Shown here piece after piece: positions 35,461-57,045 of a stretch of 64,000 nucleotides of DNA; the first letter of the stretch is position 1, and each line of letters opens with the position of its first letter. The stretch comes from a virus. Where the stretch lies: positions 6,513 through 70,512 of IMG/VR virus record IMGVR_UViG_3300037189_013673, one strand, 5' to 3'. The position numbers and the translations under genes are program-made. The notes beneath the pieces were generated by a model that was given only the letters and a program-made list of their open reading frames with translations, had not been told where the DNA came from and searched no databases.

Positions 35461-36094
35461 ATTTATTTGTAAAAGCTTTATGTTTTAATATCTCTTTCCC
35501 GATTTGTTTTGCAAAATCATTATCTGTAGTATAATGTAATCCTAAATGGATTCTACTTATAGCTACATCTTCGGCCATGGATTTACAGAATTGAAATTCG
35601 TTTGGAAATTTATTAGCAATTACATTTAACACGACATAAGCTTCTAATGCATGTCCTGAAGGATATGATGGAGTATCTGCTGAAAAACTATTAAAAGGAA
35701 ACATTGCTAATTTGTAATATTGAGCAATCTGTTTAGGTCTTGGTCTTTGATAAAAGTATTTTAATTTTATCAATAATGGTTTGATGTCATCAATAATATC
35801 CAAAGTAAGATGCTCAACATCAATGCCTTTCTGTTTAAAAGCAGATATTATTGCTTGACTTAAAGACCTATCATAAGATTTGAATCTGGTTAAATACAAA
35901 GAGTTTTCTTGTTCTAATAACATTTCTGTCATATCAACCAATTCATTTAATTCGTCTTTAACCAGTTCAGAATCATTTTCAGGAAATACTTCTCCTTTAA
36001 GTTTTATAAATAAATCATCTACAATAGAAACTTGTTCAAGAAATTTCTTTTGTTCGATTGTAGGGTTTCCGTATGTTATGTTGTTTAAGTCCAA
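35450..36094 (-). CDS. PAP2/haloperoxidase-superfamily phosphatase
   Basis: K....RPRP, PSYPSGH, SR..LGLHY..D. Confidence 0.85.
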   Translation of the reverse strand: MDLNNITYGNPTIEQKKFLEQVSIVDDLFIKLKGEVFPENDSELVKDELNELVDMTEMLLEQENSLYLTRFKSYDRSLSQAIISAFKQKGIDVEHLTLDIIDDIKPLLIKLKYFYQRPRPKQIAQYYKLAMFPFNSFSADTPSYPSGHALEAYVVLNVIANKFPNEFQFCKSMAEDVAISRIHLGLHYTTDNDFAKQIGKEILKHKAFTNKYGI

Positions 36095-37047: not shown

Positions 37048-37602
37048 TTATTTTTTAATTCTACCAAAAGGCAATAATTTACGAACTCTATTTATATTTC
37101 CTTGAATGTTGCTTAAATATTTTGTAGGAGTTGATAAAGGGTCATAACCTGCTTTTATAATACCTTTGATTTGTTGTTCAGGAGAAGTTGTTGTATCTCT
37201 AGCGGTTTTATATCTATCTCCTAATAAGACATCAATATGTCCTTTAATACCAGCATCTGCTGTAGGCCATTTTGCCCATTTAACTCCATTTCCTCCTGTC
37301 CAAGAATCAGGATGAACATTAGGATTATATTTCACTCCAGCAAAGTTATTTCCATTAACTGCTTGATTACTTCTACCATATCCACTTTCATACATGGATT
37401 GAGCAATTACTCCATTATAGAATAAATTAGTTCCTTTAATATACTTTTCAAATATTAATCCGTATTTACCAATAAAATATCTAACTTTAGTATCTGCATC
37501 AACATAAGCATCAAATGTTGCTTTTGGTAAACCATCCAAATAAGTTACCAAATCTGGAGTTTTCATTGCTTTAAATTCTGCTTGTGTTTTTACTGTTGCC
37601 AT
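37048..37602 (-). CDS. GH73-like glucosaminidase/muramidase
   Basis: IAQS..ESGYG.S ... NNFAGVK ... AGY...Y. Confidence 0.8.
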   Translation of the reverse strand: MATVKTQAEFKAMKTPDLVTYLDGLPKATFDAYVDADTKVRYFIGKYGLIFEKYIKGTNLFYNGVIAQSMYESGYGRSNQAVNGNNFAGVKYNPNVHPDSWTGGNGVKWAKWPTADAGIKGHIDVLLGDRYKTARDTTTSPEQQIKGIIKAGYDPLSTPTKYLSNIQGNINRVRKLLPFGRIKK

Positions 37603-37604: not shown

Positions 37605-37937
37605 TTACATTTTTTTGTATTTGTTACCTAATGCTTTTTTCAAGTTAGCATCATGTTCATCTACTTTTCCAGCTAAATTATCAAACTCTTCTCCAGTTAC
37701 TTGGTCATCTAATTTTTTGATAGCTTTTCTATAATAGTATATTCCATAAAAACCTACTCCAATTATAATAACGCTTATTAAAATGTCTTTCCAGTTCATT
37801 TTACCACTAGTCATACTATCTATTGCTCCACCTTCAGCCATTTGCGGTGCAGGTGCTGGAGTTGGCGCTGCTACTGGTGCAACTACTGGTGCTGCCGCAA
37901 CTTCTGGTGTTGCTGTTCCTGGTGCATTCGTATCCAT
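37605..37937 (-). CDS. TM protein with Pro/Ala-rich N-terminus ending in MAEGG
   Basis: Low-complexity leader, MAEGG, TM helix. Confidence 0.75.
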   Translation of the reverse strand: MDTNAPGTATPEVAAAPVVAPVAAPTPAPAPQMAEGGAIDSMTSGKMNWKDILISVIIIGVGFYGIYYYRKAIKKLDDQVTGEEFDNLAGKVDEHDANLKKALGNKYKKM

Positions 37938-38351
37938 TTATTTCTTTTTTAAATTAATTAATAATAGTGCTAATCCTAAAACACCAGCTAAACCAGCATA
38001 AACGATTTTATGTTGATTAAAATTTTCCTTTACATTGTTAATAGTTGTCTTGGCTTTATTAGAAACTGGCCTTGTAAAAGATAATAAAATATCTTCTAAT
38101 GGTTGAGCTGTATCTAATAATTTTATTTTTTTATCTTGTAAATCTTTAGCTTCAAAAATTTGTGTTTGAAAACCTTGATAGCTTATTTTAAATTTAGAAT
38201 TTGGTTCAATTGAATCATTTTCTAATTCAAAATCACCTTTAGCATTTGCTATGGTTCCCATTTTATTAGCTAATTTACCAGTTGTTATAGTGATATTAGC
38301 TAATTGTAATGGTTCATTATTTGAATCTACTATGTTTCCATTTATTTTCAT
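37938..38351 (-). CDS. Carboxypeptidase-regulatory-like domain protein with C-terminal TM
   Basis: G.IVDSNNEPL..ANI ... G.F.L ... ISY.GF. Confidence 0.75.
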   Translation of the reverse strand: MKINGNIVDSNNEPLQLANITITTGKLANKMGTIANAKGDFELENDSIEPNSKFKISYQGFQTQIFEAKDLQDKKIKLLDTAQPLEDILLSFTRPVSNKAKTTINNVKENFNQHKIVYAGLAGVLGLALLLINLKKK

Positions 38352-38539
38352 ACAGAACCACCTTTAATTCTTTGAATAGTATACCAGTTTACAATAGCTC
38401 CTAAAGTAAATGAAATAATTCCAACTACTACAAAAACTGTTGATAAATGTTGATGTATCTGAGAATTTACTTCTTGTTTTACTTTAGCGTCTTCTTTACT
38501 AATTTCTTCTTGCATAATAATATTTATATATAAAAGCAC
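38348..38539 (-). CDS. Small TM protein
   Basis: VFVVVGIISFTLGAIVNWY; start uncertain. Confidence 0.65.
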   Translation of the reverse strand: MLLYINIIMQEEISKEDAKVKQEVNSQIHQHLSTVFVVVGIISFTLGAIVNWYTIQRIKGGSV

Positions 38540-39185
38540 CTATTACAATAATTGTTACTGCAGTAATGCCTATTTTTGCTTGTTTTGATATTGCATAAGG
38601 TTTATTTAAAATATAAAATTGATTTAATCTATTTAACCAACCTTTTAAATTTCTAGGCTGGTTTAAATCTTTATATTTAGTTGCTCTAAAATTATTTAAT
38701 TTCTCAAATAAATCTGGAGTTTTACCTTCATCATCTAATTTATTTACAAAATTAACCATATCGGTCATACTTGTAAGGTCTTTATTATAATTGGTTTTAA
38801 AAAACTTTCTTAAAAATGGTAATGTTCCACTATAACCATCAATATTTCCTAAACCACTTCCCCAAGTCATTTCTACAAATGTATTGGCTATTGCTTGATT
38901 ATTAATTCTATCACCTTGAATAGAATCCCAAAATCCAACTTTATAAACTTTATTCCAAATGCTATCCGGCATATTTAAAAATCCACTGCAATTAGCAACA
39001 TAACCGCCTTTTGAAGCTAAGTTTTTAAATGTAATCCATTGAATACCTTTATTAGTATGATATGGGTTTCCATCTTTGCCGTTTCCACAATTAGAAGGGT
39101 TTTTACTAGCAGTATCTGTTTTAGCGCTTGATAATCCACCTTCTGATTTTTTTATGAACGGAATTAAATTCTTATAATCTGCCAT
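38499..39185 (-). CDS. GH108-like lysozyme with C-terminal TM anchor
   Basis: EGG, TNKGI, Y...FWD, KGWLNRL; IGITAVTIIVIGAFIY. Confidence 0.8.
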   Translation of the reverse strand: MADYKNLIPFIKKSEGGLSSAKTDTASKNPSNCGNGKDGNPYHTNKGIQWITFKNLASKGGYVANCSGFLNMPDSIWNKVYKVGFWDSIQGDRINNQAIANTFVEMTWGSGLGNIDGYSGTLPFLRKFFKTNYNKDLTSMTDMVNFVNKLDDEGKTPDLFEKLNNFRATKYKDLNQPRNLKGWLNRLNQFYILNKPYAISKQAKIGITAVTIIVIGAFIYKYYYARRN

Positions 39186-39479
39186 TTACCAAAGTATTTT
39201 ATCTGCATAATATCCAGGGCTTGATAAAACATGCCTATCTTTTTTATGTCTTTCTTTATATAGCTTTCTTCTTTTATTAGCATATCCTTTATCATAATAA
39301 CCTTTCTTTTCTTTTTCAAGATAAGTAGGGTAATCATTCATTCCTCTTGCACCGATTGAAGCTACTTTTTTACCATTTTTAAAAACATCAATTTTTTTAA
39401 GGATATTAGAGGATGGTTTTATAACCACCCCTAATTCCTTTGCCTTTCTAAAGCTATATGGTAAAATCTTATAAGCCAT
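39186..39479 (-). CDS. Small basic protein (DUF5754-like)
   Basis: S...KK.DV, GA.GM.DY, R..Y..RH, SPG.Y...ILW. Confidence 0.65.
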   Translation of the reverse strand: MAYKILPYSFRKAKELGVVIKPSSNILKKIDVFKNGKKVASIGARGMNDYPTYLEKEKKGYYDKGYANKRRKLYKERHKKDRHVLSSPGYYADKILW

Positions 39480-39488
39480 AAAATTTAA

Positions 39489-39734
39489 TTATCTAGAAAG
39501 CTTACCACCATAAGGACAAGGATTATCTCCATATCCACCGGTATATATTGTTGTACTACCGTCAGAGTTTTTTCTTTTACATACAGAAGTATTTCCAGAT
39601 AAATTAGAATAACCACTCATATTTGAAGAATCACTTGATGAGCTTTTCTTTTTATTAGCTGCGATTAATGATAAAGTTATCGGTATTGCCAAAACAACTA
39701 ATGCTCCGTAAATTAAAAAATTTTTGTTTTTCAT
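39489..39734 (-). CDS. Small N-terminal TM protein with NMSGYSNLSG motif and Cys pair
   Basis: Motif shared with ORFs 27724/28272. Confidence 0.7.
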   Translation of the reverse strand: MKNKNFLIYGALVVLAIPITLSLIAANKKKSSSSDSSNMSGYSNLSGNTSVCKRKNSDGSTTIYTGGYGDNPCPYGGKLSR

Positions 39735-39758
39735 TTTGATTTTTTTTAAATGTCATTA

Positions 39759-40166
39759 CTACCTATTATTTTTAAAGTAGTTGATAGCCCCTAAACTTCC
39801 TACAAGAAGAACACCTCCTATTATTAATCCTAAAACGCCAAAACTTTCTTTTTCTTCAGGTTTTACAATTTCAACTTTAGGTTCTTCTGCTAGTTTTTTC
39901 GCAGCTTCAGCTTCTTTAGCTTTAGCATCATTTTCTTTTTTATTAACAAGAGTTTCTAGTTGTTCAATAATACTTGATTCAAGCCCATCGATGTAATCTT
40001 TAGATTCTTTTAAAGTACTTTGAGATTCTTCTGTTGGATTTTCTTCATGTTCAACAAAAGCATCGTCGTAACTATCTTTTAAAGTATCTAGTTTATCAAT
40101 CTTGTTACCTAAACTAGCTGGTATTTTTCCTTCTAATTTCTCTAATAATAAATCTATTTTTTCCAT
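39759..40166 (-). CDS. Acidic helical protein with C-terminal TM
   Basis: FGVLGLIIGGVLLVGSLG; TACATTTG promoter-like element at 40199-40206. Confidence 0.75.
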   Translation of the reverse strand: MEKIDLLLEKLEGKIPASLGNKIDKLDTLKDSYDDAFVEHEENPTEESQSTLKESKDYIDGLESSIIEQLETLVNKKENDAKAKEAEAAKKLAEEPKVEIVKPEEKESFGVLGLIIGGVLLVGSLGAINYFKNNR

Positions 40167-40249
40167 AATGTTTATATTTTTAAGTTTAATTAATTTTACA
40201 AATGTAATTAATTATTATTTACAATAACTATTTAATTATTTGATTTTTT

Positions 40250-42391
40250 TTATACTAATTTGTTTTTAGTAAATTTTGTAATATTATTATTTTTAATCCA
40301 TTCTTCAAAAAGTTCTTTATTCATAGTAGGTTCATCATATACTAAAATATATCCTTCAGATTTCCAAAAATTTAAAAAATCTACTATTTTATTCTTAAGT
40401 CCACAAGTAAGAGAATATGAATCACTAGGTGGTAAAACTCCTAAATCTAATCCTAATTGTGTTCTAACATATCTATTATTTTCTAGTTTAAATAACTTCG
40501 GATGGTGTTGTTCCATTGAATTTGCAATCTGTGCATGATATTCAATTTTATTAATAAATTCAAAAGAACAACTTTCAATATTTTTATTGTCTCTAGAATA
40601 AAGACTCCATAACACATATTTTACAGGTTTATCTAAATGTCCTCCATTGACCATTTTTTGATTTGTTTTTTTTATTTCAGCTGTTGCTCTTCTTAAAGCG
40701 TCATGCCAACTTTCACCTGGTTTACGTATTTTTTTAGCTAATTGCATTGCTCCACCTCTTTTATCATCGGTTTTATTTTTAGTAGTTTTAGTAGTTTTCT
40801 TTTCAACTTTACCACCTGGCATAAACGAAGTCATATCTACTTCTGATATATTAATTCTTTTTGGTACTGCTCCACTTCCTAATTTGTTTAAATTCATTAC
40901 CATTAAAGTATCTCCTGAATGGTCTAAAACTTGAACTATTTCTCCATTTTTAAGAGTTACTTGTTTATCATCTAAATCTGAAACTTTATTATTTGAAACG
41001 ATTGATTTTTTACCAAATAATCCACCAAATGCTTTTTTATCATAAGTAGCTTTCATTTTTCCAGCTATCTTATTTCCAACTTCTTTAGCTTCTTTTTTAT
41101 CATAACGTTTACCATAAGTTCTCTGGTACTTTGGTTCAACTTGCTTTCCTTCAAAATTTTTAGCTATAGCTTTTGATTTTCTAGCAAAGGTTATGTGTTC
41201 ACCACCTAAATTCATTTTATTTCTTAACATCTTAAAATCTTCAGTATCTAATTTACCATTTTTATTCATGTCAATTTTAGATTGATTACCTTTTAAAGCT
41301 CCGCCTCTTTTATAAACTGAATCCATAAAACCACCGTTATGATAACTTAACTTTTCTTCTTTCATTTTAATTTGATTTTGTAATTTTTCAATTTTTTCTT
41401 CAACTTCATTCATTTCACCACCATATCTATTAGCATCAGCATCAGACCAATCTTTACCTTTTTGGCCTGCTTCATAGTCCATTTCTTGAAATAAGTTTCT
41501 TAAGTCTCTTTGATAGCCTTTAAGTTCATATTTTAATTCACTTAAATCACTTTCCATATCTTCTCTTCTTTGACCTCTTATTCCTCTAGGTAAATTTGAT
41601 TTTATTCTATCTTTAATGAACATTACTCCATTTGATTGTAAAGTTTTTAAACCAAACATTCTTTTATCTGTAGTATAAATTATACCATCTTCTACTTTTG
41701 AAATATAATAATCTTTATTTCTATAATTAAAAGTAGCTCCTTTTACAGCTCCACCTCTTTCGTAAACATTATTCATAAAGCCACCATTTTCGTATTCAAA
41801 ATAAGTTTTATTTGCTATTTTAATTTCATTTCTTTTAATAAAATCAAAAACTTCATTTTTAGTATTATCAAAAAACATAGTAACTAAATTACCTTTTATT
41901 GAACCTAAAGGTTGACGATAAGACCAATATACAAAGTTTAAATTATTTGCTTTACTATCATTTCTAAGTAAATTTTTAACATCATCAAAATCTTGGTCTT
42001 TTGATAAAATCATTTCAACTTCATCATTATTTCTTAATCCACCACCATCTTCATATTTATCATTTACTTTAATACCAAATTTTTTCATTACTTGTTTTAA
42101 TTCTTGATAGTTATAATTTCTATCACCATAATTCCACCAAGTAGCATTATCACTTTTTGATGGATTTTGAATAGTACCTGAAGTTATATTAACATAAAAT
42201 TTATCATTTGTTTTTTCACTATCATAACCTTCTCCAATAGTTAAAAATCTTTTTGGATTATTTTTTGATTGTATTTTTAAAACATCAACTTCTTTAAACT
42301 TATCAACACCTATTAGTTTTTTAGTTTTATCTAGTTTAATGTCATTATCTTCTAAATCTTTTGATTTTGATAATTCTATTATGTTTTTCAT
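40250..42391 (-). CDS. Multi-domain protein punctuated by [YFM]xxGG motifs (candidate polyprotein)
   Basis: YEDGG, YENGG, YERGG, YHNGG, YKRGG, MNLGG, FMPGG, MVNGG; EF-hand-like DMNKNGKLDTED. Confidence 0.75.
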   Translation of the reverse strand: MKNIIELSKSKDLEDNDIKLDKTKKLIGVDKFKEVDVLKIQSKNNPKRFLTIGEGYDSEKTNDKFYVNITSGTIQNPSKSDNATWWNYGDRNYNYQELKQVMKKFGIKVNDKYEDGGGLRNNDEVEMILSKDQDFDDVKNLLRNDSKANNLNFVYWSYRQPLGSIKGNLVTMFFDNTKNEVFDFIKRNEIKIANKTYFEYENGGFMNNVYERGGAVKGATFNYRNKDYYISKVEDGIIYTTDKRMFGLKTLQSNGVMFIKDRIKSNLPRGIRGQRREDMESDLSELKYELKGYQRDLRNLFQEMDYEAGQKGKDWSDADANRYGGEMNEVEEKIEKLQNQIKMKEEKLSYHNGGFMDSVYKRGGALKGNQSKIDMNKNGKLDTEDFKMLRNKMNLGGEHITFARKSKAIAKNFEGKQVEPKYQRTYGKRYDKKEAKEVGNKIAGKMKATYDKKAFGGLFGKKSIVSNNKVSDLDDKQVTLKNGEIVQVLDHSGDTLMVMNLNKLGSGAVPKRINISEVDMTSFMPGGKVEKKTTKTTKNKTDDKRGGAMQLAKKIRKPGESWHDALRRATAEIKKTNQKMVNGGHLDKPVKYVLWSLYSRDNKNIESCSFEFINKIEYHAQIANSMEQHHPKLFKLENNRYVRTQLGLDLGVLPPSDSYSLTCGLKNKIVDFLNFWKSEGYILVYDEPTMNKELFEEWIKNNNITKFTKNKLV

Positions 42392-42397
42392 TTTATT

Positions 42398-43885
42398 TTA
42401 TTTAGGTTCCATTTTAGTTCTCATTCCTGTAGCTAAGTTAACAAATACTATTTTACCATTAGCATCTTTTACTTTTTGGTATTTTCCAAAAGATTTTACA
42501 ATAGTATCTCCTTCATCTAAACCATGTTGATATAAATTACCACCTTCATGGTATTTCATCATCCCACCTCTTTTGTAAACAGGTACATAAGCAGGAATAC
42601 CTTCATTAGCAAACATTTTAGCTGGATTCATTGTAGCATCTTTAATCAATTGTTGATTTGCAATCATTGCTCCAGATTCAGCGTAAACGCCATCCATTAA
42701 ACCACCATTATGATATTTAATAATATATTTATAAAGAGGTTCTTTTGAATTTACATTAATATAAACATCATTTTTATAATTTTTAATTTGATTTAAAACT
42801 TTTATTACTTCTTGTTTATTTTTTGGAAACCCAGGTACTTTATATTTACCAGCTTTTAAAAGCCATGAAGGTAAATTATCAGCAGATATATACATATCAA
42901 TATCATCAAGCATTTCTTGAATATCTTTGTTATTATATTCTATTTTTCCATTATAAGTTTCTACAATTATTTTTTTATTGCCAATTGTTGCACCTCTTTC
43001 GTAAACACCATCCATAAAGCCACCGTTTTCAAACAATTCTCCACTTGATAAAGCGTTAGTTTCTCCAACTAATCCAGTATAGTGTGTTCCTGTTTCTCCT
43101 GTGAAATTATTTGAAAAAACTCCACCTAAAGCAAATCTTTTTTCATCTTCATTCATATATTCAAAAGCGGCTGCATTATGCTTTTCAGCTATTTCTCTTG
43201 CGCTTTTTCTATTATATTTATAATCCATATCTTTAATTCTCATTTTATTATCATCAGATAAATCAATATCTTCTTCCATTCCATTAGAGTTACCTAGCAT
43301 CATACCATCTTCTGCATAAGCACCACTCATAAAATCTCCACCATTTTCTAGTTTTGGAAAACCTTTTGGGTAATTAGGTGCTAATCTATCTGTTCTATTA
43401 TCTCTATACTCGTAATAAACATTACCATTTTTAGAAACTCTTCTTCCTTTAGGTTTTGCTCTTCTTACAGAATCTCTAGGTAAATCAGTTCCACGTAAAC
43501 CTTCAAGTTCTTTATGGTTTTTAATAAAAGTTTTTAATTTTTCAATTTCACTTTTCATTATTTTAGTAGCGCTTTCACCATCTGCTTTCATTTGTTTTCT
43601 AGCTCTTACTAAAGCATCGTTCCAGCTTTCATCTGCTTTACGAATATCTTTAGCTAATCCCATTGCAGTTCTTTTAGGTGCTTTAGAAGTGGTTTTTAAA
43701 GCCTCTGGTGTTTTTTCTTTTAACTTAGAAATAATAGTATCTAGAGAAGTACTTATTTTAGCATTTAAGTCTTTATCTTTACTAGTAAAATTGTTTGTTT
43801 TATCTTTTATTTGAGATAAAATTCCTTTTTGAGCATCACTTAATTTAGTTTGGTCAATTTGATTAAATTTTTGTTTATTAGTCAT
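42398..43885 (-). CDS. Multi-domain protein punctuated by [YFL]xxGG motifs (candidate polyprotein)
   Basis: LENGG, FALGG, FENGG, YHNGG, YKRGG, YHEGG; shares AMxLAKxIRKxxESWxDALxRA with ORF 40250. Confidence 0.75.
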   Translation of the reverse strand: MTNKQKFNQIDQTKLSDAQKGILSQIKDKTNNFTSKDKDLNAKISTSLDTIISKLKEKTPEALKTTSKAPKRTAMGLAKDIRKADESWNDALVRARKQMKADGESATKIMKSEIEKLKTFIKNHKELEGLRGTDLPRDSVRRAKPKGRRVSKNGNVYYEYRDNRTDRLAPNYPKGFPKLENGGDFMSGAYAEDGMMLGNSNGMEEDIDLSDDNKMRIKDMDYKYNRKSAREIAEKHNAAAFEYMNEDEKRFALGGVFSNNFTGETGTHYTGLVGETNALSSGELFENGGFMDGVYERGATIGNKKIIVETYNGKIEYNNKDIQEMLDDIDMYISADNLPSWLLKAGKYKVPGFPKNKQEVIKVLNQIKNYKNDVYINVNSKEPLYKYIIKYHNGGLMDGVYAESGAMIANQQLIKDATMNPAKMFANEGIPAYVPVYKRGGMMKYHEGGNLYQHGLDEGDTIVKSFGKYQKVKDANGKIVFVNLATGMRTKMEPK

Positions 43886-43904
43886 AATTATAATTTTTTA
43901 GTTT

Positions 43905-44558
43905 TTAAAATGCATCATCTATATTATCTAAAAATGAAAATGCATCTTCTTCTTTTTTAGGTTCAGGTTTTACTATTGTTTTTCTTTCTACTTTTGGTTT
44001 TTCTATTATTATTTCTTCATTAATTATTTCTGGTTCATTATTTGATAATAAATTTACTTCTCTATTTTCTGAAGTACTAAATTCAGAATCTCCGCTTTTA
44101 TAATAAAAAGTAGTTTTTGATTTACTATCGAATACATAAATCAAATCAGAAAGTCCCATATCTTTATCTTCTTGAGATAATGGAAAAGTAAATCTATCGC
44201 CTCTTCTAAGATTTGATAACCTTGTAATTCTTTGTTTTCCATTAATAACAACAGTATTTGGTTCAACTACATTTATATCTTCAATTACTGGTTTTAAAAT
44301 TTCAACTTCTTTTTGTTTTTTAGTTCTTGTTTTAACCGCTTTGTTTGAGTCTAAATCATTTATATCAATTCCTATTAAAGATTCTTTTTCTAATTCATTT
44401 AGTATGCTTGCAATAAGAATCTGTTGTTCTTTTGGTATCTCGATAACTGGCAAAGCATCAAACGAATTTTCTAAATCTTTAATCATAAAAGGTCTCTCGT
44501 TTTTATCTGAATATGCTATTTTTATAAGCATATTTGATATTTCTTTTAAACTGCTCAT
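43905..44558 (-). CDS. Hypothetical protein
   Basis: 217-aa ORF. Confidence 0.75.
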   Translation of the reverse strand: MSSLKEISNMLIKIAYSDKNERPFMIKDLENSFDALPVIEIPKEQQILIASILNELEKESLIGIDINDLDSNKAVKTRTKKQKEVEILKPVIEDINVVEPNTVVINGKQRITRLSNLRRGDRFTFPLSQEDKDMGLSDLIYVFDSKSKTTFYYKSGDSEFSTSENREVNLLSNNEPEIINEEIIIEKPKVERKTIVKPEPKKEEDAFSFLDNIDDAF

Positions 44559-44884
44559 ACTAATATTATTTTACCATTAGCGTCTAAATCTATTTCTATT
44601 AAATTAGATTCAAATTCCAATCTTTGTTTTAAATTATCAAACTGCTCTACGCAATTCATTTTTGACCCATTTGGCTTTATACATTTAATATTAACTTCTG
44701 AGCTTATTCCATTATCTGGCTCTAAAGCATAAGAAGTATATTTTACATAAATATCGTTAGGAGTTAATAAATTATATAATAATTTTAAATCCTTTTTTTG
44801 TCTTTTATCATAAAAAGCATAACCACTTATGTAATCATGCATAGTCTGAATTTGTTCTTTAGTAATTTTTACATTATTTTTCAT
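44555..44884 (-). CDS. Hypothetical protein
   Basis: 109-aa ORF coupled to neighbours. Confidence 0.75.
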   Translation of the reverse strand: MKNNVKITKEQIQTMHDYISGYAFYDKRQKKDLKLLYNLLTPNDIYVKYTSYALEPDNGISSEVNIKCIKPNGSKMNCVEQFDNLKQRLEFESNLIEIDLDANGKIILV

Positions 44885-44885
44885 A

Positions 44886-46568
44886 TTATATACTATCTAA
44901 TGAATCATTTAATAAATTAACTTTTTGTTGAAAACTTTCTTCTTTTTTATTTTTTTGCTCCTTTGTATCTGAGTATTTACCTGAACCTACTAATTTATAT
45001 TTTTCAACTAGCATAGAAATTACATAAGTTCTAATTAAATCTTTAATTTTTTTAGTAGTATTAGGTATTTCAAATAATTTTTTAAAAGTAACATCATCAA
45101 TAAATCTTTTATAAATGCTTTTTATAAATTCTTGCATTGGTAGCATTTCAATAGCTAAAAAATCCATATAATAATAAAAAGTAAAAAATATTTCATGAAT
45201 ATTTTTAAAAATATCAGCATAGTCCATATCGCTATCTGCTTTACTTCTACTAGCAGTAGGTAAAGCAAATTGAAAATTATTATTAATTACTTTAGTATTA
45301 ATAAAGTCTTTTTCTTTATTTACTTCAGACCAGTTTTTATAACGTTGCATTATTTCATTCATATAATCTCTATGTTCATAATTTACATCAGTAAATGAAC
45401 TACTAGTATCACCTGTAGCATTTGCTTGAATACCTTCATTTTCTACAATAATTTTATGAAAAGCAAAAAACGAACTTGCCGTGTTTGATTTCGACAATAA
45501 AGCAAATATTCTATTAAAAGATAATTTTGTAGACTCTTCATAATCTTTAACAGGTATTGACACTGTAATTTGAGTATTTTTATCAGTACCTAGACGTAAA
45601 GCACTTAATCTTGATTGAATACCAAATTCTTCTAACGCAGCACAGATTAAATACGGAGGCCATAACATTATAGCTCTTGTAGAATCATTTACTGAAAGAA
45701 AATTAATAGGCATAAAAATATCTACATTTTTTACAGAATCATCTTTTTTATTGTAAATTAAATATGATTTTTTGTTACTAGAAGCATATTTTAATCTAAT
45801 ATCACCTTTGCCATTAAATACTTTATTTTGATTGTTTAAATAATAAGTTAATATTATGCCGTCTTCATTTGGTTTTAATAAACATTCATTTGAAAAATAA
45901 TTAAAAACTTTAGTTGCTCCTCTTTGTCTTTTTTGACAATCATAATCTTTTCCATTAATAGAATATTTAAAAAAAGTAAAATCTCCAATAATTCTTTTAT
46001 TGACATTATCAGGATTTATAACTCCAGGTTCTAATTTTACAAATTCAAATGGGTTTTTTAAAACTCCTTTTTTAATATCTTCTTTTAAAGCTTCTGAATA
46101 AAATTCAATAGGTCTATATAAACCTAAACTAGCTAATCCAAAATCAAAAACTCCTCTTTCATCTTCTGTAATTATTATTTTATCATTAGTGAATAAACCA
46201 CCTAAGTTAATAAGCGTTTTAATATTTTCTACTAAAACTTTACTTATTTCTTTTATTTTAGTAAAAGTAGAATCGTCTTGATTAATAAAATCTACATAAC
46301 TTTTAAAATTTCTAAATTCAACACCACTAACATTAGATAAAGCTGAAGATTCAACACTTGATTTAGTAGATTTTTTTCTGGTTATTTCTATTAAATCAAA
46401 AGCATCTTCTAAATTTTTATATTGTTTAAACACAAAACCATTTGTACTCATAGAATCATAGTTTCTCGTAGTGTTTTTTATAGTTGATAATGACCATTTT
46501 TGGACAAAATCAATAAATGGTAATTGTCCAGACTGTTTAATAACTTCAAATAAGTTGCTTAAATCCAT
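44886..46568 (-). CDS. Hypothetical protein, probable MoxR partner (VWA-like by position)
   Basis: Directly downstream of the AAA ATPase; no canonical DxSxS MIDAS motif seen. Confidence 0.5.
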   Translation of the reverse strand: MDLSNLFEVIKQSGQLPFIDFVQKWSLSTIKNTTRNYDSMSTNGFVFKQYKNLEDAFDLIEITRKKSTKSSVESSALSNVSGVEFRNFKSYVDFINQDDSTFTKIKEISKVLVENIKTLINLGGLFTNDKIIITEDERGVFDFGLASLGLYRPIEFYSEALKEDIKKGVLKNPFEFVKLEPGVINPDNVNKRIIGDFTFFKYSINGKDYDCQKRQRGATKVFNYFSNECLLKPNEDGIILTYYLNNQNKVFNGKGDIRLKYASSNKKSYLIYNKKDDSVKNVDIFMPINFLSVNDSTRAIMLWPPYLICAALEEFGIQSRLSALRLGTDKNTQITVSIPVKDYEESTKLSFNRIFALLSKSNTASSFFAFHKIIVENEGIQANATGDTSSSFTDVNYEHRDYMNEIMQRYKNWSEVNKEKDFINTKVINNNFQFALPTASRSKADSDMDYADIFKNIHEIFFTFYYYMDFLAIEMLPMQEFIKSIYKRFIDDVTFKKLFEIPNTTKKIKDLIRTYVISMLVEKYKLVGSGKYSDTKEQKNKKEESFQQKVNLLNDSLDSI

Positions 46569-46570
46569 GT

Positions 46571-47914
46571 TTAAAACATTTTATTGATTTCGTCTAATTC
46601 TAAATCAGTATTTATTTTATCTAAAGGTAATTTATTTTTTTCTTTAACTATTTGTAACCATGATTTATAATCTGTTTTTGTTTTTAAAATATCTGCTTGT
46701 TCATTAGTAAATAATGTAAAAAATTCATCTAAAGAGTTTTCTACTGTTTTAACTGTTGAGCTTTGAACTGCATTTAAAACTGAATCAATAGGAGCTGGAG
46801 TAAATGAAATATCAGCAACAGTTTCAATAGTTTTACTATTTCCACCTGCTTGTTTAATACTTCTAAAGACATTATAAGTTTTTTGAACAGATAACATTAA
46901 ACGAACAGAAACGAATGCTTTAGCTGTAAAACCTTCTTCTTGAATTGTTTTTCTTAGTTTACTTAAATATATAAATATAAAAGCCCATTTTTTATTAAGA
47001 ATAGTTTCCCACTCAAATTTCTCATCTACAAATACTTTATATGTAGAGCCAGCAAATCTATCTTGTAAAGATAAATCCTGCTTAAAGTTAGCTTCATATT
47101 CAGCGTCTTTAGTATTTAGTAAACTATTACCTGTTGCCATGATAAAACAATCACCTCTTTCTATAATATCTCCTTTAGCATTTTGAATAGTAGCAGGTTC
47201 TCCATTGCTATTGTATTCACCAACTTTAGCTAAAGCGGCATTTAAAATACCTGCAGTATTAGGGTCTATTTTAGGTAACTCATCTAATAATAAAATACAA
47301 CCTTTTCCCATAGGACTTCCATCTGGGTTTAAATTTCCAAATGCTCTAACTACTTTTCCTTCTTGATAACCATCAATTGTTTGACCGCCTATTAATTCTA
47401 AAGCAGAAGTAAATTGATTACAGTTTACGGTGATAATATTCCAGCCTAATAAATCTTTTAAATCTCCAGCTAAAAATGTTTTTCCTGTTCCTGCACCACC
47501 ATATAAATAAACATTATTTCTTGCTAAAATATCACTTAATATTTTTTGAACAAGAGGTCTTTGAACAGAAGGCGTAAGAGTTGTTGTAACTACTTTAGTT
47601 AAAGTTCCTTGTTTAATTGTTAAAGTTACTTTAGTAGGTTGATTATTTAATAAACTTTTAATGGTATCATCTAAATCATCAAATTTAATTTTATCTGTTT
47701 CAATTTCTTCTCTAACTATTCTTTTAACTTCATCTTCATCTAAATTAGATGCTTTTTGATTTCCAGATAATAAAGCAGATAGTTGAATCATTTTTTGAGC
47801 AACTACGTCGCCTTCAAATTCATCTTCCATTTTCTTTTTAGCAAGTTGTTGTAACATTGGATTATCTGTCTCAGATGCAATATCCATTAATTCTTTTTTA
47901 GTTATATTTTCCAT
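46571..47914 (-). CDS. MoxR/CbbQ/CobS-like AAA+ ATPase
   Basis: YLYGGAGTGKT, ILLLDE, ATGN, QD.SLQDRF. Confidence 0.85.
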   Translation of the reverse strand: MENITKKELMDIASETDNPMLQQLAKKKMEDEFEGDVVAQKMIQLSALLSGNQKASNLDEDEVKRIVREEIETDKIKFDDLDDTIKSLLNNQPTKVTLTIKQGTLTKVVTTTLTPSVQRPLVQKILSDILARNNVYLYGGAGTGKTFLAGDLKDLLGWNIITVNCNQFTSALELIGGQTIDGYQEGKVVRAFGNLNPDGSPMGKGCILLLDELPKIDPNTAGILNAALAKVGEYNSNGEPATIQNAKGDIIERGDCFIMATGNSLLNTKDAEYEANFKQDLSLQDRFAGSTYKVFVDEKFEWETILNKKWAFIFIYLSKLRKTIQEEGFTAKAFVSVRLMLSVQKTYNVFRSIKQAGGNSKTIETVADISFTPAPIDSVLNAVQSSTVKTVENSLDEFFTLFTNEQADILKTKTDYKSWLQIVKEKNKLPLDKINTDLELDEINKMF

Positions 47915-48585
47915 TATTTAAAAATTTCGTTTAATAAATCATTTATTTTTTGTTCGTTATCTGTTCCGAATAGATTTCTATTACCTATTGCGGCTTTTGC
48001 TAATTGTTTATTTTTGAATACACTTTTTATACTATCTTTAGGCGTTGATAAAGCTTCTTCTATGACATTAAATCCCATATCATTTTGTATCTGCTGAGAA
48101 GATTTTCCTTTTGAAAATTCATCTTTTATTTTTTTTAATAATTCATCTAAATCAAGTCCTTCATCATCAGCTTTATTACCAAAATCTCCTTTTTCTCCAT
48201 CTTTACCTTCTCCATCTTCTCCATCTTTACCTTCACCATCTTTACCATTTTGGTCTTTACCATCTTGGTCTTTACCATCTTGGTCTTTACCATCTTTGTC
48301 TTTACCATCTTTGTCTTTACCATCTTGGTCTTTACCATCTTGGTCTTTACCGTCTTGGTCTTTATTATCTTGGTCTTTATTATCCTTATCTTGTTCTTCT
48401 TCAAAAGGATTTTCTACATTTTCAGGTACTTCTTGAGGCTCTTGAGGTTCTTCTGGCTCGTCTTTCGGCGGCGGCGGATTTTCACCTTGAGGCGGAGTTG
48501 GAGGTGGTACTCTTAAGATTGTAATATTATCTTCTTCAGTGTCATACTCTATAAATGAACTTGGTAGATTTTTTTTATTTTCCAT
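47914..48585 (-). CDS. Low-complexity Pro/acidic protein with (DQDGK)n repeat
   Basis: 223-aa ORF. Confidence 0.75.
   Translation of the reverse strand: MENKKNLPSSFIEYDTEEDNITILRVPPPTPPQGENPPPPKDEPEEPQEPQEVPENVENPFEEEQDKDNKDQDNKDQDGKDQDGKDQDGKDKDGKDKDGKDQDGKDQDGKDQNGKDGEGKDGEDGEGKDGEKGDFGNKADDEGLDLDELLKKIKDEFSKGKSSQQIQNDMGFNVIEEALSTPKDSIKSVFKNKQLAKAAIGNRNLFGTDNEQKINDLLNEIFK
48190..48392. repeat. 15-bp tandem repeat (tggtctttaccatct and variants) encoding DQDGK/DKDGK
   Basis: Directly visible. Confidence 0.9.
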
Positions 48586-48596
48586 TTTTATATTTT

Positions 48597-49106
48597 TTAT
48601 TCTTGAGTACTTAATGAAATATCTGCGTTTTGTTTATTTTTCAAAACACGTAAAGCTTCTTCTTTTGTTAATTTTTTGACAATAACTTTAGTACCTGCTA
48701 CTTCAGTAACAATACCATAATCATCTTTAACTCTAATAATATCGCCTACAACAGGTGGTATTTTTACCTTTTTTGGAGGTGGTTGATTAGGTTGTGGATT
48801 ATTAACTTGAGGAGGCGTTTCTTTAAGTTCTTTATAAATCATATCTTCAAAAAATAAAATAGCATCTTCAAAGTTTTCTTTGATTGTTTTATTTTTTGTA
48901 AAAAATTCTTCATAAATAGTATAAACTCCATTTACTTCTTTAAATACTTTGTAAGGATTAGTGTTTACTTGACCTACGTAAGCATTTGGGTTGAACTTTA
49001 CCTCTATGTTCATACCTGTAGTTGTATTAGTTAACCTATAAATTACTTCATCAGGGCTAATTACTTCTGTGCTTTCTGTTAATTTACCTTCTTTATATAC
49101 GAACAT
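48597..49106 (-). CDS. Hypothetical protein with Pro-rich linker and possible KOW/SH3-like end
   Basis: VGDIIRV...YGIVTEV. Confidence 0.7.
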   Translation of the reverse strand: MFVYKEGKLTESTEVISPDEVIYRLTNTTTGMNIEVKFNPNAYVGQVNTNPYKVFKEVNGVYTIYEEFFTKNKTIKENFEDAILFFEDMIYKELKETPPQVNNPQPNQPPPKKVKIPPVVGDIIRVKDDYGIVTEVAGTKVIVKKLTKEEALRVLKNKQNADISLSTQE

Positions 49107-52100
49107 ATCCTCCTTTATTAAATCTTATATCATTGAAAAAATTAAAATAGAAACTTCTTCTAACTGTAGCACTTTTTATTTGCGTAGGACTAAAAGTTAA
49201 ATATTCTATATCTTTTATAAATTTACTTCTATCACTTATGACTTGACCATTTGTATCAAATACAGGTATATCTCCATATTGAATTAAAGCATCGTAACCA
49301 AAATCTTTTATAGTTTCTAATAATGACACATCATTACGGACATAAACCCATATAGGATGTTTAGCTTTCATATCGTTTTGAATTAAACTTAAAACATTAT
49401 TACTTGGTTGTATTTTAATACCATAAGCTATAGTCATATAGTCAATAAGGTCTTTATAAGTTACTTCTAAGTCCAAAGGTAATAAATCTATTGGATTTTT
49501 TATATTTAAAAACACTTTATAAATAAATGGTTCATAATCTGCTGATGGTTTTGGCATATTTGGAGCATCGCCAGCATAAAACTTAGCATAATCTTCATTA
49601 TTAGCAAAATAAGATGCAGGAAATGCTGTAGGTGGCTCAAATGAACCATAAGGTCTCACGACTCCTTGACCCATATTAGAAAATTGACCAAAATTAGGTA
49701 TATATTTTCTAACTCCATGGTAAAATATTTTAGGTTCTTTAGTTTCTTCATCAATCATCTTAGAACAATCAAGATAATTATTAGTTTCATAAGCTTTTTC
49801 CCAGTCACCAAACCATTTTTTAAATTGAGGTGTTCTGACATTAAGATAAGCATTCATAGGTAATTTACTTTTCTCTCCATTAGGAGTTGGTAATTCACAA
49901 GCTGGTTCTAATGGTGCAACTGGGCTTTGAGTACTCTGAGACCAATAATACTTTAATAAACCTTGAGGCGTAAAAGTTTCAAATTTAAGAGATGATTTTT
50001 CATTTGGTTTTATAAATGTTTCATAAGTTATTTTTTTATTTAACCTATTGATTTCTTTTAAAATAGTTGCTTTTTCAACAGCAAATTTACTTTCTTGAAA
50101 AGAAGGCAATAATTTTTTAAAGTTTTCTAAATCTTTTCTGTCTTTTATTAAATTATCATCATCATATATATTAGTACTATCTTTAAATACTAATTTATCT
50201 AAATCAGCTGTAAATTCATTTTTAGGTTGATTTGATTTTTTTTCTGGTATTTTAGTTGATGCAGTTGACTGAGAAGTGGTTCCAAACAAATCAGCTTCTG
50301 TTATTTCTCTACCAGTTCTATTATCCCAACCAACATATTTATTTTTTGTAAACCATATATTATCAATATTATCTTTATCTCTTATTTTTCCTTTTATACC
50401 TATATTATCTTTCCAACCAAGTTCTTCTGCTTTTTCAACTACTCTTTTAGCTAATTGTATATCACCATTAATATTTATATAAGTACTAGTTAAATCTGTA
50501 ATTAAATTATTAGAAATGGCTGAACTAGAACCATACATATCTTTATATGGTTTAAAGTTTCCTGAATTAATTTCTGCCCAAAAATCATCACCTTCTTTAG
50601 TTCTGCTCCAACTAAAAGCTAAATCAATCTCATCACTATCTCTACTAAAATTACGTTCTTTTTTTCTTAATAAAGCTAATTCTTTAATTGGTTCAGGCAA
50701 ATCAGATATTTTACCGCTAAAATTAGGTATTGAATCTGGTATTAAATCAGAAGTAGTTGGTTGCGTTTTTATTACAGGTTGATTTATATTTATAAATGAA
50801 GCTTTATTTTTCTTCATATCTTCAACTAATAACATCATATCAACTTCTGTTATTTCTACAGCAGGGCTATCATTAAAAGTATTTCTTGAAGTTTTACGTA
50901 ATATTGAATTATATTGAAACGTTATCCAATCTGTAACAGCGTAACCATCTGTATTTATTATTTGAGAACCATTAGTATCTGTTAAACCTAATTCAAAAGC
51001 TAATTCTTGTACTTTTATAAATAAATCTTTTTTTCCACCTATCCAAATTTTAGTGTTATCTAAACTATCTACAATGCTTCCAGAAACAGTTGGTTGCGTT
51101 TTAATTGAAGTAGTTCCAAAAACATCTGCTTCAAAAATTTCTTTTTCTGGTTCGTTTTCAAAATATGATATAGCATTAAAACCATAAATTCTTTTACCTA
51201 TATTTTTAATAGAAACTGTAAAAGTTAATCCATTTGCATTAACATAATTATTAGTACCATCTTCATTTTTAAAACCTTGAGCAAAAGCTAAATCTTGTAT
51301 TCTTCTTGATAAATCAGGATTGTTTTCTACCCATATTTTAGTATTATCTAAATTAAATGGTTGATTAGAAACTACTGGTTTTGAAACTGTTTTGCTTAAA
51401 TTAGGAGTGCTTGTTCCAAATATATCTTCAATGAATATTTCTTTAAGATTTGGTCTACTATCAAAAGTAGTTCTTAATTCTCCGTAATTTATAGATTTAT
51501 CTTTATAAAAATATAATGCTGTGGCTTTATCAACAGATGTTGTTTTAACACCAGATGATGGGTATTTCCAACCTAATTCAAATGCTCTTTCTTGAACTGC
51601 TTTAGATAATTTAGGGTCATCTCCAATCCAAATTTTAGTATCACTTAAATCTGTTAATATGTTATTAGAAGCGCTTTTAATAGTTGCTTTAGGAGCATTA
51701 CCAAATATTTCAGCTTCTGTTATTTCTCTTTTAGGACTATTATCAAAAGTAGAAGTAGAATTACCGTAAGAAATACTTTTCTTTGTAAAATATAAATAAT
51801 TAAAAGAACTATAATCTAAGTTTTTACCATGATTATTTTGCCATTCCCAACCATCATCAAAAGCTTTTTGTTGTACTCTTATTGATAAATCTTTATCCAT
51901 AAGAACTTTTAATTTAGTATTTGTAAAATCAAAAGCTTTAGCAAAACTACTAGTTACATTTACACTAGTATTAGGATTAACTACTACTGTTCTATTTCCA
52001 CTAAAAAAATCAGACCAATCATAATTTATTGCTTGATAATGATTTTCTTTATCTATTTGTTTATATAAATCAGTTGGTTTACCAGTAATTGGATTAAAAT

Positions 52101-53490
52101 AAGTATTTGTATTTCTAGCATCTTTAAATTTTAATTTAGTAACACTACCTTTGTTATTTATTCTAAAATAAAGCCAACAAGGTTCTTTTTTATCAATAAA
52201 TATTTCTCTAACATCTCTTAAAAAATCTTTATAGTTTGTATATACTTTTCTTTCTAAACTAGTTAAATCATAAGAAGTATCAGTGATAATTATACTTTCA
52301 ACTTTAGGCAAACCTGGATTACCACCTAAATCAAAATGTTTAGTTACATTTATAGAATCGCCTTCTAAATTAGCATCATAAGGAGTTAAACCACCTTTAG
52401 CATAAATACCTGTATCTCCACCAACTCTTCCATCTGCTTCAACATCTAACATATCATTATAGTTGTTTAAATCTCTTGCAGGTGTGTTTCCATTTTTGGC
52501 ATCTCTAACTAAACTTTCTTTATGAACTTTACCACCATGACTCATTTTTAATTCATGAGAATCAATTTTAGCGGCTTTTCCACCCATTACTGCAGAGTAA
52601 ACTCTAGCCATTGCCCATTGTTCTTTAGAAGTAACATTTTCTCTAACACTTTCATGGTTAGTTTTAAAAGCTCCAATTCCTTTATTATATATTTCTTGTA
52701 AACCTTTTATAGAAATACCTGTATCTTTAGAAATATCTTCTAAATCATGTGATTTATCAACTGGATATTTATATTTTTTATTATATTTATCTTTATATGA
52801 TACATAACCACCATCGTGAAACTTTTCACTTTCATCAGTATAAAAAGTAGGGCTTTCAACTAAATGGTCTTTTACAATATTAAAATGGTCTAAATAAGTT
52901 CCTGCATGAATGCTTTCGTCTTTCATGCCTAATTCAACTTGTTTATCTAATTCTTCTAATGTAACATTATGCATTTTAGCAATATCTTCTAATGACATTC
53001 CTTTTGATAAATGACCACTTAGTTCAAATTTATTATCATCTTCATCATATTCACAGCCGCATTTATTTATTTCTTCAGCAATTTCTTTATCAGACATCAT
53101 TTTGCCACCGTAATTGTAAGTTCCACCATTACAAAGCATTTTACTTGAAACTTCTGCTCCATCTTCTGCAAAAGCAACTCCACCTGCATCATGATTAATT
53201 TTAGATAAAATTTCTCTATTAGTCATCATTTTACCTTGAAATTGTCTTTTTGATTGGTCTGCTAAAGCCGGTGCGGTAATAATAACTTCTCCTGTTTGTA
53301 CTTCTATTGGTTGTCCTGAAGTTTTATCAACTCCTTTTATTCCACCTTCTTTATGTGTTTTACCTACAAACCAACCACCTACTTTGCCATCATCATATAT
53401 AATTGTTTGACCATTTCTTTTACCTACTAATACTCCACCTTGTGGTGAATTTTTAGCTTGTTTTTCTGTTAAGTCTATTTTTTTTGCCAT
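49093..53490 (-). CDS. 1465-aa polyvalent protein: N-terminal small domains, five internal repeats, C-terminal ADP-ribosyltransferase-like (ART-PolyVal) domain
   Basis: VRTPQFKKWFGDWE...SK..DE...EP...YHG, YFA....A..YA, FLNIKNP, GYDA, EY..FSPTQIKSA. Confidence 0.8.
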   Translation of the reverse strand: MAKKIDLTEKQAKNSPQGGVLVGKRNGQTIIYDDGKVGGWFVGKTHKEGGIKGVDKTSGQPIEVQTGEVIITAPALADQSKRQFQGKMMTNREILSKINHDAGGVAFAEDGAEVSSKMLCNGGTYNYGGKMMSDKEIAEEINKCGCEYDEDDNKFELSGHLSKGMSLEDIAKMHNVTLEELDKQVELGMKDESIHAGTYLDHFNIVKDHLVESPTFYTDESEKFHDGGYVSYKDKYNKKYKYPVDKSHDLEDISKDTGISIKGLQEIYNKGIGAFKTNHESVRENVTSKEQWAMARVYSAVMGGKAAKIDSHELKMSHGGKVHKESLVRDAKNGNTPARDLNNYNDMLDVEADGRVGGDTGIYAKGGLTPYDANLEGDSINVTKHFDLGGNPGLPKVESIIITDTSYDLTSLERKVYTNYKDFLRDVREIFIDKKEPCWLYFRINNKGSVTKLKFKDARNTNTYFNPITGKPTDLYKQIDKENHYQAINYDWSDFFSGNRTVVVNPNTSVNVTSSFAKAFDFTNTKLKVLMDKDLSIRVQQKAFDDGWEWQNNHGKNLDYSSFNYLYFTKKSISYGNSTSTFDNSPKREITEAEIFGNAPKATIKSASNNILTDLSDTKIWIGDDPKLSKAVQERAFELGWKYPSSGVKTTSVDKATALYFYKDKSINYGELRTTFDSRPNLKEIFIEDIFGTSTPNLSKTVSKPVVSNQPFNLDNTKIWVENNPDLSRRIQDLAFAQGFKNEDGTNNYVNANGLTFTVSIKNIGKRIYGFNAISYFENEPEKEIFEADVFGTTSIKTQPTVSGSIVDSLDNTKIWIGGKKDLFIKVQELAFELGLTDTNGSQIINTDGYAVTDWITFQYNSILRKTSRNTFNDSPAVEITEVDMMLLVEDMKKNKASFININQPVIKTQPTTSDLIPDSIPNFSGKISDLPEPIKELALLRKKERNFSRDSDEIDLAFSWSRTKEGDDFWAEINSGNFKPYKDMYGSSSAISNNLITDLTSTYININGDIQLAKRVVEKAEELGWKDNIGIKGKIRDKDNIDNIWFTKNKYVGWDNRTGREITEADLFGTTSQSTASTKIPEKKSNQPKNEFTADLDKLVFKDSTNIYDDDNLIKDRKDLENFKKLLPSFQESKFAVEKATILKEINRLNKKITYETFIKPNEKSSLKFETFTPQGLLKYYWSQSTQSPVAPLEPACELPTPNGEKSKLPMNAYLNVRTPQFKKWFGDWEKAYETNNYLDCSKMIDEETKEPKIFYHGVRKYIPNFGQFSNMGQGVVRPYGSFEPPTAFPASYFANNEDYAKFYAGDAPNMPKPSADYEPFIYKVFLNIKNPIDLLPLDLEVTYKDLIDYMTIAYGIKIQPSNNVLSLIQNDMKAKHPIWVYVRNDVSLLETIKDFGYDALIQYGDIPVFDTNGQVISDRSKFIKDIEYLTFSPTQIKSATVRRSFYFNFFNDIRFNKGGYVRI

Positions 53491-57043: not shown

Positions 57044-57045
57044 GA

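Follow-up and report, generated by a model that had tools for sequence, protein, structure and literature searches.

A Gly-Gly heptad at module ends in the polyvalent proteins of an uncultured virus family

Three long proteins of an uncultured virus are punctuated by a short motif, [YFML]xxGG, and the question that this locus raises is what purpose the motif serves. The proteins are encoded on the minus strand at 49093–53490 (1465 residues), 42398–43885 (495 residues), and 40250–42391 (713 residues) of the window, a stretch of 64,000 nucleotides that comprises bases 6513–70512 of a single 70,512-bp virus record (IMGVR_UViG_3300037189_013673) with a G+C content of 27%. Open reading frames (ORFs) are named here by their first window coordinate. 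The original prediction, made from the DNA letters, had reported about 20 copies of the motif concentrated in these three ORFs; we find 21, and every string it had quoted lies where it had been placed. The motif forms the first part of a longer heptad that delimits the modules of these proteins. Selection has very probably maintained this heptad as a recognition signal with a function at module ends; a cutting site and a packaging tag are its two most likely roles.

A heptad at the ends of protein modules

ORF 40250 contains eight copies of the motif (8 of its 12 Gly-Gly dipeptides), ORF 42398 six (6 of 6), and ORF 49093 seven (7 of 14). Enrichment, for which the original prediction had proposed a test, was assessed by shuffling the residues of each protein 20,000 times. 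This gave expected numbers of 0.84, 0.68, and 1.11 copies for ORFs 40250, 42398, and 49093, respectively, a sum of 2.6 against the 21 observed, and only 0, 1, and 1 shuffles attained the observed number (p of approximately 0, 5 × 10−5, and 5 × 10−5). Among the other listed ORFs of the window with at least 60 residues, more than two matches were found only in the glycine-rich ORF 16301–18358. It was rejected as a member of the same motif system, its 12 F[IL]GGG strings within 55 Gly-Gly dipeptides being a different feature. This ORF encodes 685 residues on the minus strand, has orthologues in four of the five related records that were used to score gene presence, and is possibly a fibre; the next gene has a weak BclA_C-like match.

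The motif is widespread among homologues of the three proteins. A close-pattern viral scan with ORF 42398 returned no match; an alignment-based scan was successful. In 113 homologues of this ORF, 956 of 1591 Gly-Gly dipeptides carry Tyr, Phe, Met, or Leu at position −3, with Phe accounting for 27% there against a background of 3.4%. The corresponding figures are 1186 of 1882 for 127 homologues of ORF 40250 and 921 of 1972 for residues 1–420 of ORF 49093, taking the best 120 of its 737 homologues. Across the 352 metagenome homologues in the three sets, 47–63% of Gly-Gly dipeptides are preceded in this way, compared with 18% (195 of 1091) in a control set of 371 distinct ORFs of at least 200 residues from 80 unrelated viral loci, none of which is motif-rich.

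A sequence logo of 959 instances confirmed the form [YFML]xxGG as far as it goes and extended it, as a hydrophobic residue two places past the Gly-Gly also belongs to the motif. The consensus heptad is [FY>LM]-[AENM]-x-G-G-x-[VLIM]. Position 0 (P5) is Phe in 45%, Tyr in 32%, Leu in 15%, and Met in 7% of instances and holds 2.8 bits; position 1 (P4) is Ala, Glu, Asn, or Met (1.3 bits); positions 3 and 4 are the two glycines; position 5 is mostly small; and position 6 (P2′) is Val, Leu, Ile, or Met in 81% of instances (1.6 bits). Neighbouring heptads are separated by a median of 43 residues, and the largest protein at the equivalent gene block of related records of 60–77 kb, with 2781 residues, contains 34 motifs among 50 Gly-Gly dipeptides.

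ORF 49093 has a conserved N-terminal domain, followed by DUF5824 at residues 230–309 (Pfam, E = 1.1 × 10−11) and, near its end, by ART-PolyVal at residues 1252–1442 (E = 6.5 × 10−10). Its heptads lie at residues 119, 125, 224, 316, 363, 386, and 1457, the last one 4 residues from the C-terminus (53116–53136, 53098–53118, 52801–52821, 52525–52545, 52384–52404, 52315–52335, and 49102–49122, minus strand), and its homologues add DUF5661, DarA_C, N6_Mtase/Eco57I, Zeta_toxin/AAA_33, NUDIX, GNAT, and beta-clamp-like parts. ORF 42398 consists of a conserved helical N-terminal domain (residues 1–160) and a series of small modules, with heptads at residues 179, 251, 285, 391, 437, and 445 (43331–43351, 43115–43135, 43013–43033, 42695–42715, 42557–42577, and 42533–42553, minus strand); ArdA is fused in many of its homologues. 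In the likewise modular ORF 40250, the eight heptads are found at residues 113, 200, 210, 350, 360, 393, 523, and 580 (42035–42055, 41774–41794, 41744–41764, 41324–41344, 41294–41314, 41195–41215, 40805–40825, and 40634–40654, minus strand), and its homologues carry RadC, DUF2958, LPD11, RelA_SpoT, DUF5824, or ArdA. Several unrelated effector domains of the set defined for polyvalent proteins are thus combined in single polypeptides, in ORF 49093 itself and in the homologues, which places the three ORFs in that class. The original prediction had called these proteins packaged cargo. They are indeed of a kind predicted to travel with DNA, and from their domain content and the precedent of the Dar proteins of phage P1 we infer that their products may be delivered with the DNA in the particle.

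Two further features of these proteins deserve mention. Residues ~400–1200 of ORF 49093 (50000–52300) are made up of several protein repeats of ~95–100 residues of the TKIWI...LGW type (phrog_17589), and no tandem repeats were found in this ORF at the DNA level. Residues 364–392 of ORF 40250 (41216–41302) form an EF-hand-like peptide, KGNQxKIDMNKNGKLDxxDFxMLR. Copies with 65–82% identity occur inside otherwise unrelated proteins of more than 80 viral contigs, which include contigs of 100–360 kb, and the peptide appears to behave as a tiny mobile module.

The heptad lies between domains rather than within them. In 18 proteins with 34 domain hits, 7 motifs fall inside Pfam envelopes (3733 residues) and 149 outside (14,993 residues), which corresponds to 0.19 and 0.99 motifs per 100 residues and hence to a five-fold depletion inside. 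A motif follows within 20 residues of the end of 21 of 29 domains (median 13) and precedes 10 of 29 domains by at most 15 residues. In relatives, LPD11 (residues 569–636) sits between an FDNGG that ends at residue 564 and an FSKGG that starts at residue 640, RadC ends at residue 353 and is followed by YLERGG at 355, and 8 residues lead from FMAGG to the start of ArdA; in ORF 49093, DUF5824 is flanked by FHDGG (224) and MSHGG (316). ORF 42398 was modelled with AlphaFold2 on the basis of 58 sequences. The model has a mean predicted local distance difference test score (pLDDT) of 56.5 and folded parts at residues 1–160, 305–370, and 452–492. All six motifs are in stretches with a pLDDT below 50, with the caveat that few sequences align in the variable parts.

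Module content varies greatly among close relatives, and the variation is centred on the motif. Between homologues, 60% of 2415 similarity ends lie within 5 residues of a motif Gly-Gly, compared with 14% for random positions, and the median distance from a similarity break to a motif is 4 residues versus 21, a statistic that is biased by the tendency of BLAST segments to end at a conserved motif. In the families of ORFs 42398 and 40250, terminal modules bear a motif within 5 residues of the protein end in 6 of 223 cases only. The motif, then, delimits modules, and module exchange occurs at it, in agreement with the earlier proposal that it flanks discrete modules whose gain and loss would coincide with it.

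Cutting site, packaging tag, or passive hinge

The most informative result is that the heptad is also used beyond module junctions. ORF 37605–37937 (minus strand) encodes a small single-pass membrane protein of 110 residues, in which the string MAEGG had already been pointed out. Its heptad, MAEGGAI at residues 33–39 (37821–37841), separates the membrane helix from an N-terminus that is hypervariable and rich in Pro/Ala/Thr, and in an alignment of orthologues [MYF]xxGG is kept in 22 of 22, with both glycines invariant. ORF 49093 terminates in FNKGGYVRI, and its orthologue ends likewise in all five related records. The last motif comes to within 4 residues of the C-terminus in 76 of the 120 ORF 49093 homologues, 42 of which end exactly in GG-x-[LI]; none of the 352 homologues of the three sets terminates at the Gly-Gly itself. 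A motif occurs within the first 12 residues in 19 of the 352 proteins, some of which use the start Met as its first position. Finally, a basic protein of 286 residues that is unrelated to the polyvalent ORFs and encoded just outside the window (L081:5297–6157, plus strand, genome coordinates) has the heptad K[LF]xxGG[KE]I at its C-terminus in four of four orthologues. The gene is located ~5 kb from a genome end, and 4–5 kb from a record end in all four orthologues.

We favour, tentatively, the reading of the heptad as a proteolytic processing site for a virus-encoded endopeptidase. On this proposal, the heptad would close nearly every module of the family's polyvalent proteins as a short linear recognition signal. 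The polyvalent strings of anti-restriction and host-takeover domains would probably be taken up into the particle and enter the host along with the DNA, as is suggested by homology to polyvalent proteins that include those of the P1 Dar type, and the endopeptidase would cut the disordered linkers at or just past the Gly-Gly. This would release folded effectors (ART and DUF5824 here; ArdA, RadC, and methylases in relatives) together with many short basic peptides. The same enzyme would trim other proteins, removing the Pro/Ala-rich N-terminus of ORF 37605 and the tails of 2–4 residues past the last Gly-Gly. Modules that all end in a common signal could be exchanged between proteins without loss of processing. 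The enzyme would be the gluzincin-like product of ORF 25721–26506, the sole candidate found.

Several observations argue for cutting: the excess of motifs over the shuffled expectation in the three ORFs; their generality among homologues relative to unrelated viral ORFs; the spread of information over P5, P4, P2, P1, and P2′, a pattern also seen in the sites of viral proteases; the position of the motifs in low-pLDDT linkers and outside Pfam envelopes; the rarity of the motif at the end of last modules, as expected of separators; and the invariant single site that divides a variable leader from the body of ORF 37605. To these can be added the location of ORF 25721, with its invariant HExxH and ExxxD, in the conserved morphogenesis block of five of five relatives, and two phage precedents, namely head proteases that act on a shared motif and the zincin processing proposed for polyvalent proteins.

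A scan of all ORFs for HExxH gave a single match, ORF 25721–26506 (minus strand, 261 residues). The gluzincin signature of thermolysin-type enzymes combines HExxH with a downstream Glu ligand in an ExxxD helix. Both elements are found in ORF 25721, where HExxH (H188, E189, H192) and ExxxD (E202, D206) are invariant in 60 sequences of a family of 565 representative clusters. The model (pLDDT 96) consists of an N-terminal beta-sandwich and a C-terminal helical domain, and the residues of the metal-ligand motifs reside on helices 179–195 and 202–215. From its sequence and model, the protein is a candidate gluzincin-like metallopeptidase. It is present in five of five related records at 48–76% identity, within the most conserved block of the genome. 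Fold matches were weak, the best peptidase rows in Foldseek being 3c37 (E = 0.03) and a phage 'Peptidase M48' (E = 5.6 × 10−3). There was no Foldseek match in the PDB at E ≤ 0.001, no Pfam, PHROG, or NCBIfam family match, and no match in the genome collection. A complex prediction of ORF 25721 (with Zn) and the leader and motif of ORF 37605, run without controls, scored 0.00 and weighs neither way. It may be this protein that reads the heptad.

The original prediction had instead put forward an LRAT-like gene as a second protease. LRAT/PLAAT-like NlpC/P60 proteins are recognized by an H-box, an NCEHF motif with the catalytic Cys, and a C-terminal membrane helix, and the sequence of ORF 10265–10738 (minus strand) has all three (H-box YHYGII...IIHNH); its Pfam matches to LRAT (2.6 × 10−4) and Peptidase_C97 (8 × 10−5) are both under their cut-offs. 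The gene, which adjoins a DUF285-repeat protein (8727–10268), is found in two of the five related records, and two of the three that do not have it are rated 100% complete and contain the most motifs. The LRAT-like protein is not the heptad reader. As a protease it was rejected on its absence from three of five relatives and on features that are those of lipid acyltransferases or phospholipases.

A number of points weigh against cutting. Gluzincins are expected to select a hydrophobic P1′ residue and not Gly-Gly at P2–P1, and the sugar-binding-like sandwich that the N-terminal part of the ORF 25721 model resembles would suit a host-surface enzyme as well. Pfam scans of 59 ORFs of the genome revealed no Gly-Gly-type cysteine peptidase, and searches of the genome gave 0 matches to clan-CE C5/C48 (PF00770, PF02902) at E ≤ 1 and 0 to C39 (PF03412). 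At the extreme C-termini of ORF 49093 homologues, a cut would free only 2–4 residues, and the unrelated L081:5297–6157 family ends in the heptad too. Doubled motifs lie 10 residues apart, and inter-motif pieces of 13–35 residues would become tiny peptides. The central 800 residues of ORF 49093 are repeats with no motif between them. Cleavage products are so far unseen.

Almost as likely as cutting, if also tentative, is a role in docking or cargo loading, which the original prediction had raised as a packaging tag. The heptad would then stay uncleaved, and its aromatic and aliphatic anchors, joined by a Gly-Gly turn, would bind a repeated site in the assembling particle. Possible receptors include a chaperone or ATPase, a protein of the core or membrane, and the inner face of the shell. 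The long disordered strings would be drawn into virions through many weak contacts, and ORF 37605 and the 286-residue protein would share the tag. This explanation stays nearly equal because the complete heptad, up to its hydrophobic residue or one or two residues beyond, is conserved at extreme C-termini. A short conserved peptide at the very end of the cargo is what both the ORF 49093 homologues and the L081:5297–6157 family display, and some proteins open with the motif. Tandem doubling would fit avidity, the motif follows domains more tightly than it precedes them, as a C-terminal tag would, and encapsulin targeting peptides, which are short, Gly-rich, and C- or N-terminal, provide a precedent. 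On the other side, no receptor was identified, most last modules of the ORF 42398 and ORF 40250 families are devoid of a terminal motif, and up to 34 copies per protein is far above known targeting systems. In a particle with an inner membrane, moreover, cargo bound to the shell would end up on the wrong side.

It is improbable that the heptad serves only as a passive hinge and as a junction for recombination, with Gly-Gly providing flexibility, the coding stretch providing microhomology, and no protein reader being involved. The clustering of similarity breaks at motifs and the differences in module content among close relatives would be explained, as would the repetition of linker DNA. The doubled linker YENGGFMNNVYERGG (41750–41794, minus strand) has further copies at 41300–41344, 42989–43033, and 42671–42715, so that the DNA-level similarity of four doubled linkers, placed by the original prediction to within ~10 nucleotides, is borne out. 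They form a direct-repeat family (D1) in which 41752–41791 and 42991–43030 are 90% identical over 40 nucleotides, and the doubled unit recurs in homologues. A second repeat (D2) of 81 nucleotides, at 40670–40750 (minus strand) and 43586–43666 with 75% identity, encodes a module of ~30 residues, AMxLAKxIRKxxESWxDAL, which comes after a Gly-Gly in ORF 40250 and ends many homologues. However, at identical residues, synonymous sites agree in 1682 of 1956 cases (86.0%), barely more than the 1641 (83.9%) expected from codon usage; the sole codon bias is at the first Gly, which is GGT in 18 of 21 motifs against a background of 48%. The similarity of the linker DNA is thus accounted for by the shared peptide and codon bias, and the idea of a special DNA-level recombination cassette was rejected; it rests on the protein-level breakpoints only, with the BLAST bias described above. 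Moreover, flexibility requires neither the aromatic residue at −3 nor the aliphatic one at +2, and the motif is also kept invariant where nothing is joined, namely in a membrane protein with a single module and at C-termini.

A fold element, such as a terminal strand clasping the ends of a domain, or a different chemistry (modification or ligation, for example) is very improbable, for although hydrophobic residues lie on both sides of the Gly-Gly and every kind of module has the heptad, it flanks ArdA, RadC, NUDIX, GNAT, and methylases, which fold elsewhere without it, the ORF 42398 model leaves the motifs unstructured (the alignment there being thin), and no modifying enzyme was found.

Genome setting and host

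Nearly all genes between 8.7 and 64 kb of the window are on the minus strand. Among the three long ORFs lie an AAA_5 ATPase (46571–47914), a very acidic protein of 223 residues with a run of DGKDQ/DGKDK repeats (47914–48585, minus strand), and unknown genes; downstream of the block, Pfam identifies two lysis-type enzymes, a Glucosaminidase (37048–37602) and a GH108 protein (38499–39185). Searches of a phage collection by DNA and by four proteins found no cultured relative. The only match among 185,579 species genomes was a 132-kb contig (L166) of a Sediminibacterium metagenome-assembled genome (Bacteroidota), a weak hint to the host group. Given the endolysin genes and the one relative inside this contig, the host is bacterial, and the records represent an uncultured family of ~70-kb viruses that probably infect Bacteroidota.

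No capsid, portal, or terminase was named by Pfam, PHROG, and NCBIfam scans, PDB sequence searches, and two Atlas look-ups, and the genome yielded no Pfam, PHROG, or NCBIfam match to a large terminase, a capsid of the HK97 type, or a tape-measure protein. Two tandem paralogues of 233 residues each, at 29405–30106 and 30130–30831 (minus strand), are 83% identical to each other and among the most conserved genes of the family (66–67% identity, five of five relatives). They adjoin a P-loop ATPase of 273 residues (32555–33376; 72% identity) and a core protein of 348 residues, and we regard them as candidate shell proteins. The 20–32 kb region encodes many small proteins with one membrane helix each, and one relative (G001) has perfect inverted terminal repeats of 123 bp. 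The genome also has a sugar- and sulfate-modifying gene cluster for a virus of this size, at 12756–15882 and 54400–58601 (minus strand), comprising a sulfotransferase, an APS kinase, a cytidylyltransferase-like protein, three glycosyltransferases, a hexapeptide transferase, and a PAP2 phosphatase (35450–36094).

Comparison with known systems

Polyvalent proteins and the idea of their processing are known already. According to the main text of Iyer et al. (2017), such proteins are predicted to enter the host together with the DNA, for which the Dar proteins of P1 are the precedent, and their processing by zincin-like peptidases was proposed (PMC5512222). Like them, the ORFs described here and their homologues string together ART-PolyVal, LPD domains, ArdA, RadC, DarA_C, methylases, Zeta/AAA kinases, NUDIX, and GNAT. 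Unlike in a common, if not obligatory, polyvalent theme, in which a zincin-like or other peptidase is embedded, ORFs 49093, 42398, and 40250 contain no Pfam peptidase family and no HExxH. Apparently new is the shared heptad that closes the modules and is also found at protein termini and in a membrane protein. The words 'glycine' and 'linker' are absent from the main text of PMC5512222, and we found no description of the heptad in the literature searched; the supplementary alignments of that paper may hold relevant material and may show the heptad.

The first weapons that a phage or plasmid brings into the cell are probably its polyvalent proteins. A universal end-of-module signal would make it possible to parse hundreds of unannotated modules, with the short inter-heptad pieces as candidate anti-defence units, and it would offer both a direct handle on processing or packaging and a rule for recruiting new modules. 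If the heptad is a packaging tag, it could load foreign proteins into particles; if it is a cutting site, it would define a new protease-substrate system in bacterial viruses.

Short peptides that direct cargo to a shell are known from encapsulins, where they combine Gly with hydrophobic residues and sit at the extreme C-terminus of the cargo, or sometimes at its N-terminus (PMC8346489). The heptad is likewise a short peptide of Gly and hydrophobic residues at an extreme terminus. The encapsulin consensus sequences (SDGSLGIGSLKRS, TVGSL, and GPTGLGTSAAR) differ from it, encapsulin cargo has one or two copies as against up to 34 here, and the shell partner here is still a candidate only. Export by the double-glycine leader/C39 route, with its leaders of the LSxxELxxIxGG type, is not matched: no C39 peptidase was found, and the leaders of ORF 37605 orthologues are Pro/Ala/Thr-rich.

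Phage T4 packages an ADP-ribosyltransferase. The head proteases T4 gp21, phiKZ gp175, and SPN3US gp245 are serine proteases of tailed phages whose motifs end in Glu, whereas the present genome showed no hallmark gene of tailed phages and its candidate enzyme is a zincin. The arrangement is similar: in large phages one such enzyme acts on many internal or ejection proteins through one short motif, and according to PMC10052503 nine substrates of SPN3US gp245 contain 14 sites, a single propeptide being cut several times.

A further parallel is with Gly-Gly-type polyprotein processing by the papain-like cysteine proteases adenain, ASFV pS273R, and coronavirus PLpro, in which Gly-Gly likewise precedes the cut, presumed in our case, and a hydrophobic residue lies upstream. 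Adenain and the African swine fever virus (ASFV) protease follow the consensus (M/L/I)-X-G-G-X, in which P4 is hydrophobic and the cut falls past the Gly-Gly. The exact adenovirus/ASFV rule that the original prediction had invoked does not carry over: the hydrophobic residue here is at P5, P2′ is strongly aliphatic, the host is bacterial, and none of the peptidase families C5, C48, and C39 is represented in the genome. What does carry over is the placement of sites at module borders of proteins that are particle-associated there and may be so here, and the short tails past the terminal Gly-Gly, which resemble those of ubiquitin-like precursors. One might go further, with little confidence, and propose for these ~70-kb bacterial viruses a 'module grammar' in which heptad-closed effector domains and mini-peptides are cut by a dedicated zincin in the particle or in the host. 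If so, new anti-defence modules could be plugged in by recombination at the heptad, and the system would be the bacterial-virus counterpart of adenovirus and ASFV polyprotein processing, achieved with a different enzyme.

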